In this document: in pieces, positions 3,001-6,000 of the stretch | Numbering within the stretch: position 1 is the stretch's first letter | Layout of the letters: each line of letters begins with the position of its first letter | From: Theionarchaea archaeon | Lineage (GTDB): Archaea; Methanobacteriota_B; Thermococci; Methanofastidiosales; SZ-28-30 | Direction of reading: 5' to 3' | DNA length: 41,151 nt | Assembly (NCBI GenBank): GCA_018992565.1 | Contig: JACVGW010000015.1 | Span: forward strand, 1 to 41,151 | Made by a program: the position numbers

Positions 3001-6000
3001 TTCCAGAGATATCTCTTCCCTGCAGGCCCGGCCTGCATTCACATCACAGTGGATACAATGCAGGTTGCAGCGCGACGTGATCTCGAAGTACAGATTCGTC
3101 AAGGGAGGTAGTGATGGAACATTCACAGACAACCCCTCAAAATGAGGCGAATCAAAAGCAATGATAAGACTCTTTCTCAGGTAGCGAACAATGGTGAGAA
3201 AAGTATCAAAAGAAACCTCTGACTTCACCTGCTCATAAATGTGCTCCAAGGTACACCTACCATTGCACAGCTGAAGAATTCTATATCCCATCTCATCCAA
3301 CATGCACCACGATGGAATATGAGGGTTGAGGATGAAATTCATGCCATTCTCCTTGAACAGCAGCGCACCCTCAATTTGGCACGGTTTTTTGCCTATATCC
3401 ACTCTTACACCTTCTAGCACGTGAATGCTAGTGGTACGACACTGGAAATCGCGTCGAACGCAGATTTCATAAGGACTATGTCTTCGTCCATTTTTCTCAC
3501 CTCTTTCCCCAGTGTCACGCTGCCATATATAAAGCTTTCTCTTCCAATCTTCCTGACATGTTAATGCGGCAAGAATGACACCAAAAGAAACAAAAGGTTT
3601 CTCACTCAAATCTGGACTGCATCTGAAGTCATTGAGAAGAATTCCTGCAGTCAGAGCCCCGGAGAAGGGTTCAGGGTGACTATTGAGGTCTGTACATACA
3701 TTCAGGGCGGGGCAGTTTCCATGACTGCAAACCGGATTATCACCAGCACGTGAGTTCCATACCCATAGGGATCTTTGAAAAACATATAATGGGACCCATC
3801 ACTGTCTTCTGGATTCCCCACCTCCAGATGAGGATGTACACCTGACTCAGAAATCTCCCGAATCAGAGTGTTAGTCTCTGAGGTTCCAATTAAAATCAGG
3901 TTGAGCTGCTTCTTATCCTCTTCTGTAACCTCTTCGTCGAACTTAACAATATCCACGATGCGTATGTCAGCAAGTTCGCCACTGGAAAATCCCACTTTTG
4001 TGGCAATAGATGAGGCAAACACAATGTCCAGAGAAGGGCAGTTTTCCCCAACCACTATGACAAAAGCGGGGGTACCTTCTGCGTTCAGGAAAAAGGGAAG
4101 TCGCGCGAAGTTCACCATGGAAACACCATGGATTTCTTCTCCAAGGAGCTTATAAACCTACTCCTTTCTATGAGCGATCTTCAGGAATAATTGGTAGTGG
4201 ACGAAGATGCGAAATCCTTTTAAAGAAAAAAGAAGAGATAGTGTTGGTGAGGGATGACGAACAATCTGTCTTTCCGAACGGTGAAGAACTCACGACGAAC
4301 CGACCTCACTCATTTATTGTTTTGGATTACAGGCTGATTGCATGAGTACGGGTTATTTGATAGGCAACTGGAGCCGATTCTACATAGTAGATGAGAATAA
4401 TCGTTCTGTGGCAAAGACAGAGTTTTCAGGCTCGGAGCAGGAATGCACAGAGAAGGTCCGCAACCTGCGGAGAGGTGTTCCACCCCCGGAGATCATCACT
4501 CTGATAGAGGAAGCAGGACCTCTGGTAGAAACACTGGTCGTTGAAGATGATGCACTGGCTAGAACCCTCCAGCAGACTACTGGGTGTACTGTTACTGTGC
4601 CTGCGTCCCCTAACGACATGTTTCGCAGGCTCAGGCTCATGTTCTTCAAGAAAGGAATTCACAGCAGGCATCCTCTGGCTGTCTCCACAGCACGTGAAGA
4701 CAAGAAGGAAGCAGACACACATCCAGACATGCGCATCCTGCGCCTGGTGGACATGCTCACTATGTATGACGAATCATACCAGTTCTACAACAATTTCAAG
4801 GAAACCTGGTATGAGAATAGGTTTTCAGATAAAGAATCCCCCGTAATTCAACCAGACCTCCAGCAGGAAGAGTCAATCGTCAGGAATACGGATGGACTTC
4901 TTGAAGTGGTGTCTGTCCTGCGCAAGAGAACGCGAAAAGCACTGGCTCTTGTGCTGAGAGAATATTCACCAACCCTCTACAACGTAGCTGGACTGGAAAT
5001 TGCTGCCAGGCTCATTGCTGAAGCTGGCTCTCTGGAGAGGTTGGCGACAATGTCTGCCGGGACTATTCAGATTCTGGGTGCCAGGAAGGCCTTCTTTAGA
5101 GCAAAGCATTCAGGATCACCTTTTCCCAAGTTTGGGATCATTTTCTCCCATCCCTATATTCAGGCACTACCCTCTCATCACAGAGGTAAGATGGCCAGAC
5201 TCCTGAGCTGCCAGATTGCCATTGCTGCCCGGGCAGACGTTTACACACACAGAGATATCTCAAGACAGTTGCGATTGAAGCTCAAGAAGAGATTTTACCA
5301 GCTGAGGGGAATACTATGACGCAAGTTTCACACACCACGAACCCCCGTGTTTTCTACATGCTCCAGGGGAGGAAGAAAGTCCTGCTGACACAGGATGCGT
5401 CCCCCGAATATTCTGTGTACGGAGAACAAAAAGTAGAGGCTGATTCACATATCTTCCGAACCTGGGATCCGTACAGGAGCAAACTTGCTTCATCCATCCT
5501 GGAAGGCCTCCCCTCTATACCCATCAGGGAAGAAGATACTGTCTTATACCTGGGAGCTGCCAACGGCACCACTGCCTCTCATATTTCCGACATTGTAGGG
5601 AGTTCTGGAGTAGTTTACTGTGTTGAATTCAGCCCTGTTCCCTTTGGGGATTTAATCCGCCTGGCAGAGCACAGGACAAATATCTTTCCCATTCTGGCAG
5701 ATGCACGTGATCCTGTGCAGTACTCCTTCATGGTGGGGGGAGTGGATGTCCTCTACTGTGACCTGGCACAACCGTCTCAATGTGAGATTGTCCTTTCCAA
5801 TGCAGCCCGCTTCTTGCGGTCAGGAGGGCACCTCCTGCAGGCCATCAAAGCATCTTCTATCGATAGCTCGCTTCCCCCTTCACAGGTATATGAAACAGCA
5901 GTATCTGAACTCTCAAGAGGGTTTGCCATTCGTTCAACAATTCCCCTTGACAGATATCAGAAAAAGCATATCATGGTATGGGGCGTATACGCACCATAAC

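Follow-up and report, generated by a model that had tools for sequence, protein, structure and literature searches.

Analysis of a 41,151-nt contig of a Theionarchaea archaeon (the whole stretch is referred to here as the window) revealed two adjacent genes on the forward strand. A Nop5-like scaffold gene (4342..5319; 325 amino acids), encoding a putative N-terminal domain of the fibrillarin-binding type, a coiled coil and a C-terminal Nop domain, is followed by a fibrillarin-like gene (5316..5999; 227 amino acids) whose putative function, that of a SAM-dependent 2'-O-methyltransferase, is assigned from its family match. The two open reading frames share a 4-nt overlap, through which the fibrillarin-like gene appears to be translationally coupled to the Nop5-like gene; the pair also overlaps in a related locus (L006, described below). 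A preliminary description of this DNA had reported such an overlapping pair in addition to the canonical one, and both were found: fibrillarin is encoded at exactly two places in the genome, and Nop-domain genes likewise number two, on contigs C49 and C76, the pair on C76 being the canonical one. The relationships it gave between the copies were reproduced as well. The two fibrillarins are 45% identical over 201 amino acids, and the two Nop5 proteins align only C-terminally (45% over 103 C-terminal residues and nowhere else). The genome has a single L7Ae gene (TIGR03677, 146 bits), again as described; a second PF01248 match is L30e.

The genes around the pair encode radical-SAM/SPASM, B12-radical-SAM and glycan functions, in line with the setting between radical-SAM peptide and glycan genes noted in the preliminary description. 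The pair sits within a strain-variable island of 16 kb, adjoining DNA that is syntenic with a congener. Three Cys-containing precursor-like ORFs, a SPASM maturase, four further radical-SAM enzymes and an MFS exporter were found in the island, for which (window 1 to about 15.9 kb) no DNA match was found in congener G032, a genome that is 91% complete. Contamination is an unlikely source of the pair.

Analysis of the Nop5-like protein identified the Nop domain at residues 191-318 (Pfam PF01798, 111.2 bits against a cut-off of 25.4), and the archaeal Nop5 N-terminal domain PF21572 was matched at 25.9 bits, under the cut-off of 27.8. A PDB profile search matched the protein to Sulfolobus solfataricus Nop5 with an E value of 8e-40. 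The same protein (3PLA_A) and the AF2 model (pLDDT 83.7) share an alignment of 379 columns (Foldseek E 3.7e-17), and the modelled fold is that of a full-length Nop5, with coiled-coil helices at residues 128-160 and 171-208. In sequence, the N-terminal and coiled-coil parts are barely alignable to canonical Nop5. The score of 148 bits against the NCBIfam equivalog aNOP56 (NF011121) failed the cut-off of 452; since the canonical Nop5 of the same genome also fails it (310.5 bits), this cut-off is uninformative in this lineage. Among canonical Nop5 columns conserved at 80% or more, 37 of 53 are retained in the paralogue. The RNA-contact residues Q296, K316, K336 and R339 of S. solfataricus Nop5, to which R313 and R331 are added (PMC9670817), have identical equivalents by alignment at Q243, K263, K283 and R286 for the first four and are replaced by P260 and S278 for the last two. 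Paralogue-specific replacements in the Nop domain were found at three otherwise near-invariant positions beside the RNA-contact residues, namely E248 to R/K, H264 to F/Y and K291 to Q; glutamic acid occupies position 248 in 97% of 148 canonical sequences. Structure prediction gave a homodimer score of 0.53, against 0.00 for the best control, a pass that may reflect likeness to solved Nop5 dimers; in the calibration, 20 of 30 proteins whose solved structures are pairs of one chain attained the mark, as did one of 23 solved as single chains. At least 46% of contacts agreed between runs, with a partner pLDDT of at least 71, and the predicted interface is symmetric and spans residues 121-203.

The fibrillarin-like protein scored 260.6 bits against Pfam PF01269 and 250.4 bits against NF003276 (cut-off 113). 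It retains 66 of 81 canonical fibrillarin columns conserved at 85% or more, SAM-binding motifs included, and the catalytic motifs are also kept; clade-specific changes were found at N27D, E46V/I, R108T/V and R111G. From their sequences, both proteins look competent. Both families are compact. Nop5-like proteins fall into about 15 full-length clusters at 50-99% identity, after which the score drops from 309 to 114 bits, and 80 columns are invariant across the 15 aligned sequences. A search of 1.84 billion representatives at 50% identity found only one other member of the Nop5-like family (356 bits; next match 135 bits). Fibrillarin-like family members share 62-84% identity at 312-430 bits, and the next matches reach at most 226 bits. 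For at least six clusters the longest contigs are equal in size between the Nop5-like and fibrillarin-like cluster lists. Judged by sequence, the two proteins thus represent conserved sister clades to ordinary Nop5 and fibrillarin.

A total of 71 rows were used for the fibrillarin tree: 35 of the 105 matches P0081-P0185 (every third), 20 canonical sequences from the loci and 16 paralogues, with P0069 omitted. The fibrillarin-like clade is monophyletic (SH-aLRT 100). In the unconstrained tree the paralogues fall among other archaeal phyla; in the AU test, a single clade of the paralogues with the phylum's own fibrillarins is allowed (p 0.559), the constrained tree being 2.47 lnL better. Named members of the family are Theionarchaea and Ca. 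Methanofastidiosia MAGs, all of the same archaeal class. These results, and guides that match genus-specific rRNA nucleotides (see below), do not establish the acquisition by transfer that had been proposed for the pair. The companion proposal, a second box C/D core with guides of its own, gained strong support, as a conserved sRNA with 23S-matching spacers was found upstream.

Comparison of the 133 genomes of the phylum revealed the Nop5-like paralogue in one genome only (722 bits), all others scoring 96 bits or less, which agrees with the earlier count of two Nop5 places here and at most one in each of 24 relatives. Apparent second matches in other genomes of the phylum correspond to the N-terminal part of the same gene and are no second copy. 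Scans with the Nop5-like alignment gave 32 pattern matches among genome contigs and 82 among viral contigs, with no relative in either collection. Pieces of both genes were found at 100% identity in two metatranscriptome assemblies, where DNA carry-over is possible.

Guide RNAs had been flagged as unsearched in the preliminary description; our search identified a variant box C/D-like element directly upstream of the pair, a putative guide sRNA of 65 nt (4246..4310, forward strand), separated by 32 nt from the start codon of the Nop5-like gene downstream. All its parts lie on that strand. A 7-bp terminal stem (4246-4252 with 4304-4310) encloses box C AUGACGA (4254-4260), a 13-nt D' guide (4261-4273), box D' CCGA (4274-4277), a 3-nt loop (4278-4280), box C' GUGAAGA (4281-4287), a 12-nt D guide (4288-4299) and box D CCGA (4300-4303). 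The element's internal C'/D' motif and its two spacers of about 12 nt are those of a box C/D sRNA. Box C and both D-type boxes depart from the consensus RUGAUGA and CUGA, with changes at position 5 of box C and position 2 of box D; neither the bulged U nor the GA dinucleotides behind the tandem G.A pairs are altered, and the element has a GAU bulge. A TATA-box-like motif (TTTTAAAG; 4218..4225, forward strand) precedes the stem's first base by about 25 nt and may serve as an archaeal promoter for the sRNA, perhaps for the cassette as a whole. A T-rich stretch (4313..4323, forward strand), recognised from its sequence, lies after the sRNA and ahead of the start codon; it may terminate the sRNA as an oligo-T signal or else act as a TATA-like element if the mRNA is leaderless. 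In one study, two RNA-library contigs start at 4339 and 4342, a weak hint; contigs of these libraries do not cover 4246-4310 and are uninformative on expression of the 65-nt RNA.

Of the 133 phylum genomes, one has the RNA motif, and it is the one that carries the paralogue. Overall, three loci only carry the RNA: the window and two loci of one metagenome, L006 and L007, which are 95% identical to each other. Between the window and L006 the element is about 85% identical, with boxes and stem identical, while the proteins are only 55% identical; the L006 spacers are 13 and 11 nt long. The T/A-rich block of 4218..4225 is conserved in L006 and L007, and the remainder of the upstream spacer cannot be aligned. 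In L007 the D' box is altered, and about 270 nt are deleted, so that the Nop5-like gene lacks its end and the fibrillarin-like gene its start. The dN/dS values for L006 against L007 are 0.10 and 0.09 for the two genes. Neither the pair nor the RNA is present in two congeners whose 23S sequence is the same, and the module is therefore dispensable.

A genome-wide scan (2.8 Mb) for C/D architecture with a terminal stem gave one match, this element, and three shuffles gave none. A relaxed search of the genome for more variant-box sRNAs found none besides the element at 4246-4310, and Rfam at the gathering score gave no match across the window. End-to-end alignments on 4250-4305 were obtained with six Pyrococcus sR families, at sub-threshold scores (8.8-12.9 bits, E 0.36-9); every C/D match in Rfam falls well short of its gathering score. 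The terminal stem is present in centroid folds. The minimum free energy is no better than that of shuffles (z 0.03 and -1.17), as would be expected of an open guide RNA, and the stem lacks covariation support because it never varies. A consensus-box sRNA with a 10-nt match to 23S rRNA was also found in the genome (C137:3565-3619), hence the variant boxes are not the general style of this organism. The element pattern gave two matches in the genome-contig collection, one in Bacteroidales and one in Methanobacteriota, and both look like chance; the latter lies inside a 155-aa ORF that was read by eye as ribosomal protein S13.

Both spacers pair in canonical register with overlapping sites in helix 93 of the organism's own 23S rRNA, beside the peptidyl-transferase centre. 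The D' guide forms 10 Watson-Crick pairs and one G.U pair at positions 2-12 upstream of D', and the 10 pairs of the D guide, which occupy positions 2-11 upstream of D, are all Watson-Crick. In a search of the rRNA operon and 31 tRNAs, the best ungapped duplexes of the guides were at 23S positions 2645-2654 and 2653-2662. In a control of 20,000 shuffled guide pairs, 10 nt was attained by 320 and 214 when each guide was taken alone. Among the nucleotides paired by the guides are U2590 and A2604, which, among the genomes read, occur only in the three of this genus; the f2, f3 and f6 genomes read differ. By the N+5 rule, 2'-O-methylation is predicted at A2655 and U2648 of the organism's 23S rRNA (A2600 and U2593 in E. 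coli numbering). In L006 the D' guide retains the same 10-bp core; the D guide there forms a weak duplex, a run of nine with two G.U pairs, as judged on the rRNA of the window genome and not on that of L006 itself. A consensus-box guide for A2600 was found in none of the 133 phylum genomes by a narrow test (exact 9-nt complement followed by NN and CTGA).

Overall, our analysis suggests that this locus is probably a self-contained RNA-guided 2'-O-methylation cassette consisting of a promoter, one variant-box guide RNA and the Nop5 and fibrillarin paralogues. We infer that the sRNA is transcribed, pairs exclusively with the paralogues, uses L7Ae and directs methylation, by a mechanism modelled on the canonical archaeal C/D RNP. 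The terminal C/D motif would form a K-turn and the internal C'/D' motif a K-loop, both retaining the tandem G.A pairs and bulged U read by L7Ae, so the single host L7Ae probably still binds. The altered nucleotides would place C.C in the C/D motif and A.C in the C'/D' motif instead of U.U, at positions expected in the half of the GA stem contacted by the Nop5 C-terminal domain. The diverged Nop5 paralogue would be the matching private scaffold, dimerising through its coiled coil and bringing two fibrillarins of its own, and the D' and D guides would then pair with the helix 93 sites near the peptidyl-transferase centre for methylation of the two predicted riboses.

Three other explanations were considered. 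The element may mainly be a cis-regulatory K-turn leader through which L7Ae or sRNP proteins throttle translation of the paralogue operon, the paralogues serving ordinary guides or other RNAs. Its same-strand position ahead of the start codon fits this explanation, as does its GAU bulge, and there are precedents: in S. acidocaldarius, L7Ae is reported to bind a K-turn of the nop5-fibrillarin transcript and to autoregulate its mRNA through a GAU-bulge K-turn in the 5' UTR (PMC5539422). Regulation, however, needs neither a second C'/D' motif nor spacers of 12-13 nt, and would not call for two spacers pairing from N+2 to N+12 with adjacent sites of the organism's own 23S rRNA, genus-specific nucleotides included; we therefore regard a mainly regulatory element as quite unlikely, with the remark that a leader role and a guide role are compatible and not exclusive. 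Also unlikely is that the sRNA is a normal guide for the canonical Nop5 and fibrillarin, its linkage to the paralogues reflecting shared regulation and the paralogues acting in guide-independent methylation or as a ribosome-assembly chaperone. Archaeal Nop5/fibrillarin is reported to accept guides without any C/D motif in vitro (PMC9670817), and box changes therefore need not impose specificity. Against a normal guide stand the lack of the RNA motif in 132 other phylum genomes, all without the paralogue, the non-consensus box nucleotides kept across lineages of 55% protein identity, and the replacements of E248, H264 and K291 beside RNA-contact residues.

A pair that is only a passenger or a decaying duplicate in a variable island, with no function of its own, would account for the lack of a DNA match to the island in G032 and for the internal deletion in L007. 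Such a pair would not be expected to show dN/dS of about 0.1 in both genes, the invariant Nop5-like columns, retained catalytic and SAM motifs and a conserved linked RNA, and we consider this explanation highly unlikely. The dedicated methylation cassette can also be taken further, as an orthogonal, portable ribosome-editing module that is the self-protection gene of the radical-SAM peptide (RiPP-like) island. The altered K-turn of the private guide would then be read only by its own Nop5 and fibrillarin, and helix 93 methylation would keep the product of the island off the ribosome of its producer. This extension is improbable. Genes for rRNA methyltransferases that confer resistance occur in bacterial antibiotic clusters, and a self-protection role, if true, would to our knowledge provide their first RNA-guided counterpart.

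In descriptions of archaeal C/D RNPs, all guides are served by a common set of L7Ae, Nop5 and fibrillarin. Fibrillarin is essentially single-copy in archaea, with duplicates in three of 148 species, according to one survey (PMC7608942). A search of the available literature found no paper describing such a cassette of guide and Nop5/fibrillarin genes, and a search joining Methanofastidiosa and Nop5 found none. The cassette, if true, would constitute a natural example of orthogonal RNA-guided methylation, in which one non-consensus guide has its own Nop5/fibrillarin pair. It would offer a direct handle on the reading of the GA stem by the Nop domain, a specific and testable ribose methylation beside the peptidyl-transferase centre, and a parallel to the eukaryotic split of Nop5 into specialised paralogues.

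Among known systems, one comparison is with the archaeal box C/D sRNP, made up of a Nop5 dimer, fibrillarin, L7Ae and a C/D sRNA (for example S. solfataricus, 3PLA), with which the locus shares the three-domain Nop5 fold (here modelled), the fibrillarin family, overlapping genes, an RNA with terminal K-turn, internal K-loop and a pair of roughly 12-nt spacers, and guide-target duplexes of 10 bp (here predicted) in canonical register. It differs in the second, divergent protein pair in one genome, in AUGACGA/CCGA and GUGAAGA/CCGA in place of RUGAUGA/CUGA, and in a single guide gene physically fused to the protein operon. In the L7Ae-bound K-turn leaders of nop5-fibrillarin and l7ae mRNAs (PMC5539422), a GAU-bulge K-turn likewise stands at the transcript 5' end; unlike these leaders, the element described here combines the layout of a full dual-motif guide with spacers complementary to rRNA. 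Among eukaryotic systems, the Nop domain of Prp31, which with 15.5K acts on U4 snRNA, is a structural match to the Nop5-like model (2OZB_E; Foldseek E 3.2e-07), and Prp31 is likewise a Nop-domain paralogue for one K-turn RNA with an L7Ae-family protein in common; it is eukaryotic and has neither a methyltransferase partner nor a guide function. In Nop56 and Nop58 an ancestral Nop5 was duplicated and the copies became specialised towards different K-turn motifs (PMC7229835), and duplication with specialised copies is what the two systems have in common. Nop56 and Nop58, however, form a heterodimer in one RNP, with one common fibrillarin, that serves all snoRNAs, whereas here each Nop5 has its own fibrillarin, a homodimer is predicted, and the paralogue is apparently tied to one RNA.

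The Nop5-like gene (4342-5319, + strand) and the fibrillarin-like gene (5316-5999, + strand) are overlapping ORFs on contig C49, the window, in a genome of 2.8 Mb (154 contigs, 88% complete, 1.6% contaminated) whose canonical nop5-fibrillarin pair, overlapping as well, is located on contig C76. The fibrillarin-like ORF matched the fibrillarin profile with 260.6 bits; the Nop5-like product carries a Nop domain (111 bits), and its archaeal Nop5 N-terminal domain scored below threshold (25.9 bits; cut-off 27.8). The two fibrillarins of the genome share 45% identity across 201 residues, and the two Nop5 proteins can be aligned solely over 103 C-terminal residues (45% identity). 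One L7Ae gene was found in the genome, the remaining PF01248 match being L30e. Around the pair lie glycan genes and genes for an MFS transporter, a radical-SAM/SPASM enzyme and additional enzymes of the radical-SAM and B12-radical-SAM types. The preliminary description had reported this second overlapping pair, the 45% identity of its fibrillarin, the C-terminal-only alignment of its Nop5, the single L7Ae gene and the setting among radical-SAM and glycan genes, and our results agree with it on each of these points.

Analysis of relatives revealed that, as judged from their sequences, the Nop5-like and fibrillarin-like proteins constitute a separate and conserved pair of paralogues. For the Nop5-like protein, a search by word index identified 15 clusters of full-length relatives (50-99% identity, 309-717 bits), after which the score falls to 114 bits, the level of ordinary Nop5. 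In an exhaustive phmmer search of 1.84 billion 50%-identity representatives, 2180 proteins were found at E <= 0.001 and just two at E <= 1e-30, a family member scoring 356 bits and the next protein 135 bits. An alignment of 15 Nop5-like sequences contains 80 invariant columns. Relatives of the fibrillarin-like protein (62-84% identity) scored 312-430 bits and the best protein beyond them 226 bits; in a tree of 71 rows, the fibrillarins of the paralogue group (16 sequences) formed one branch (SH-aLRT 100) with a long stem (1.07 changes per column). In the match lists of the two proteins, the longest contigs were of equal size for at least six clusters. The two genes overlap also in L006, a metagenome locus with a related cassette. 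Between L006 and L007, a 95% identical locus from the same metagenome, dN/dS came to 0.10 over 255 codons of the Nop5-like gene and 0.09 over 200 codons of the fibrillarin-like gene. The three family members named at NCBI are one 'Theionarchaea archaeon' and two 'Candidatus Methanofastidiosia archaeon'.

Both proteins look functional, judging from conserved residues, an AF2 model and a predicted homodimer. The fibrillarin paralogues retain 66 of the 81 columns that are at least 85% conserved in 55 canonical sequences, SAM-binding motifs included, and deviate at 15, several of them invariant in canonical proteins (N27D, E46V/I, R108T/V, R111G). The Nop5 paralogues retain 37 of 53 columns (at least 80% conserved in 152 canonical sequences) and deviate at 16, including these Nop-domain changes: E248 to R/K, L251F, H264 to F/Y, A289S and K291Q. 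According to PMC9670817 (2022), L7Ae recognises the GA stem together with the loop and its projecting uridine, and the C-terminal domain of Nop5 contacts the GA stem, chiefly at the 3' half of box C, as well as neighbouring spacer residues; the same paper lists R313, K316, R331, K336 and R339 of Sulfolobus solfataricus Nop5 as phosphate contacts, and Q296 and R339 as contacts of the unpaired base after the stem. In a profile alignment, Q296, K316, K336 and R339 have identical counterparts in the Nop5-like protein (Q243, K263, K283, R286), and R313 and R331 are replaced by P260 and S278. In the AF2 model (pLDDT 83.7, pTM 0.70) an alpha/beta domain at the N-terminus is followed by two long helices (residues 128-160 and 171-208) and a helical Nop domain. 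Foldseek aligned it with 3PLA_A over 379 columns (E 3.7e-17) and matched it also to other Nop5, Nop58, Nop56 and Prp31 chains. The homodimer prediction passed (0.53; best control 0.00), a result that may reflect memory of solved Nop5 dimers; in the calibration, the mark was reached by 20 of 30 proteins solved as one-chain pairs and 1 of 23 solved as single chains. Contact agreement between runs was at least 46%, partner pLDDT was at least 71, and the predicted interface is symmetric (residues 121-203).

Alignment of the spacers upstream of the Nop5-like gene from the window, L006 and L007 revealed about 90 conserved columns immediately before the start codon, the remainder being unalignable. 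The core of this region (4246-4310, +) is a candidate sRNA laid out in sequence like the archaeal box C/D sRNAs described in PMC7229835 and PMC9670817. A 7-bp terminal stem (4246-4252 paired with 4304-4310) leads through a GAU bulge into box C, AUGACGA (4254-4260); a 13-nt spacer, a D'-type box CCGA (4274-4277), a 3-nt loop, a C'-type box GUGAAGA (4281-4287), a 12-nt spacer and a D-type box CCGA (4300-4303) follow. The element retains the bulged U and the GA dinucleotides forming tandem sheared pairs, and deviates at position 5 of boxes C and C' (C or A, not U) and at position 2 of boxes D and D' (C, not U). Between the window and L006, the stem and the four boxes are identical except at the R position of C', and the roughly 10 of 65 positions that differ are all in spacers or loop, whereas the proteins are only 55% identical. 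A conserved TATA-like TTTTAAAG precedes the stem by about 25 nt, and a T-rich run lies 3' of the element. A genome-wide scan that required a C'/D' pair, 10-14-nt spacers and a terminal stem of 4 bp or more, and allowed every base at C position 5 and at D position 2, found this element as its sole match, compared with 0, 0 and 0 in shuffled genomes. Rfam gave no match at gathering score; under relaxed settings, Pyrococcus sR3, sR9, sR60, sR41, sR39 and sR44 aligned over their full model length with 4250-4305, keeping the same register, with scores of only 8.8-12.9 bits. In centroid folds the terminal stem alone appears.

Both guides were searched for duplexes against the rRNA operon, located on contig C127 (LSU_rRNA_archaea, 2800 bits), and 31 tRNAs. 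The best duplex of the D guide is with 23S 2645-2654 (10 Watson-Crick pairs, guide positions 2-11 upstream of box D), and that of the D' guide with 23S 2653-2662 (10 Watson-Crick pairs and one G.U, positions 2-12). Both lie in the core-pairing register of C/D guides, given as positions 3-11 in PMC7229835. Among 20,000 shuffled guide pairs, a 10-nt match was reached singly by 320 and 214, and at least 9 nt with both guides by 88. By the N+5 rule, U2648 and A2655 of the genome's own 23S are the predicted targets. We equate these with U2593 and A2600 of E. coli helix 93, a site two nucleotides away from A2602. In agreement with this placement, PMC7555685 assigns A2600 to H93 and A2598 to a 'GUGA motif'. 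The three genomes of the genus (the one under study, its congener G032 and G033) have U at E. coli position 2590 and A at 2604 (own 23S 2645 and 2659); family f2 has A/U and families f3 and f6 C/G there (19 genomes read). Helix 93 is otherwise highly conserved, and these substitutions were absent from the other families read. The window guides pair with both genus-specific nucleotides. In L006 the 10-bp core of the D' guide is unchanged, and the 11-nt D guide gave no strong duplex on the rRNA of the genome under study, which is not the rRNA of L006's own host.

The paralogue is present in 1 of the 133 genomes of the phylum and the RNA motif in that same genome alone; no further copy was found in a 185,579-species collection or a viral collection. 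At least one other C/D sRNA candidate of the genome (contig C137, 3565-3619, +; locus L043) has consensus boxes (AUGAUGA and CUGA, each twice) and 12-nt spacers; therefore, the variant boxes are specific to the paralogue-linked RNA. Ten nucleotides of its D' guide match 23S, about 90 nt 5' of the sites paired by the guides of the variant-box element, and eight nucleotides of its D guide match next to the A-loop region. In the whole genome there are only four strict C/D candidates, hence the sRNA repertoire seems small. The changed box nucleotides fall where the GA stem is contacted by Nop5 and not by L7Ae in the account of PMC9670817, and K-turns with C at position 3b tend, by implication of PMC6298567, to fold in metal ions alone. 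Box specificity, the location of the Nop5 contact and the K-turn data together make a private RNA-protein match plausible. The upstream element may instead be an L7Ae-binding K-turn leader of the kind known for nop5-fibrillarin leaders (PMC5539422). Such a role could coexist with guide function, but leaves the guide features of the element unexplained. We consider a dedicated-cassette mechanism moderately probable. The second C/D core with its own guides, as proposed in the preliminary description, thus gains a candidate sRNA whose guides match the genome's own 23S, with the private match being plausible only; the finding is borne out and is more interesting than first described.

Positions 15.9-41.2 kb of the window are syntenic with contig C18 of G032 (about 80% nucleotide identity) as far as the end of C18, and the window's contig therefore belongs to this genus. 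Neither G032 (91% complete) nor G031 has DNA matching positions 1-14 kb, and in G033 the MFS gene alone matches (67%). Hence, the cassette lies in a strain-variable island (1 to about 15,900), together with the peptide ORFs and five radical-SAM enzymes; a PaaK-like ligase, GT28, a methyltransferase and an oxidoreductase are also encoded there. None of the neighbours in L006 (beta-propeller, DUF1232, DUF4097, DUF885, ABC exporters) recurs next to the cassette in the window; the RNA and the two genes move or persist as one unit. Acquisition by transfer, as earlier proposed, was not supported for a source outside the lineage; the AU test did not reject a common clade of the paralogue fibrillarins with the canonical fibrillarins of the phylum (p 0.559). 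The cassette in L007 (933-2319) lacks about 270 nt at the gene junction, so that the Nop5-like gene is without its end and the fibrillarin-like gene without its start, and it has an altered D' box; thus, either the module can decay or the L007 contig is misassembled. The retained parts of the L007 cassette show dN/dS of about 0.1 against L006.

Three paralogous small ORFs of 31-34 aa (1294-1389, 1491-1586 and 1863-1967, minus strand) occur downstream of a radical-SAM/SPASM gene (2035-3609, minus strand). Two share the leader MEEID(I/M)LLSPEM, the third being more distant, and in all three the C-terminus contains Cys and a GGTGAT motif lies shortly before the ORF; by sequence they look like RiPP precursor peptides. 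The syntenic part contains a beta-CASP RNase J-type gene (32723-34015, +; RNase_J_b_CASP, Lactamase_B, RMMBL).

At least half of the stretch's sampled words are present in 18 of the 23 listed runs; these come from seven metagenome studies, with marine sediment, mangrove and soil among the sample types, and 13 were flagged as possible sources. Two metatranscriptome assemblies from one study contain 100%-identical contigs over 4339-4532, 5259-5438, 5354-5570 and 5700-5872, for which DNA carry-over is possible. Two RNA-library contigs from one study begin at 4339 and 4342, the latter being the ATG of the Nop5-like gene, with TTTATT about 25 nt upstream; this is a weak hint that a second, leaderless transcript may start there.

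The components belong to known families (Nop5, fibrillarin, C/D-type guide). Literature searches for Nop5/fibrillarin paralogues, the lineage names and orthogonal or second systems did not find this arrangement described. Archaeal fibrillarin is reported as single-copy in the comparative study PMC7608942, with duplicates in 3 of 148 species given there without functional analysis. The closest parallels come from eukaryotes: the Nop56/Nop58 split, and Prp31, a protein with a Nop domain that is devoted to a single K-turn RNA.
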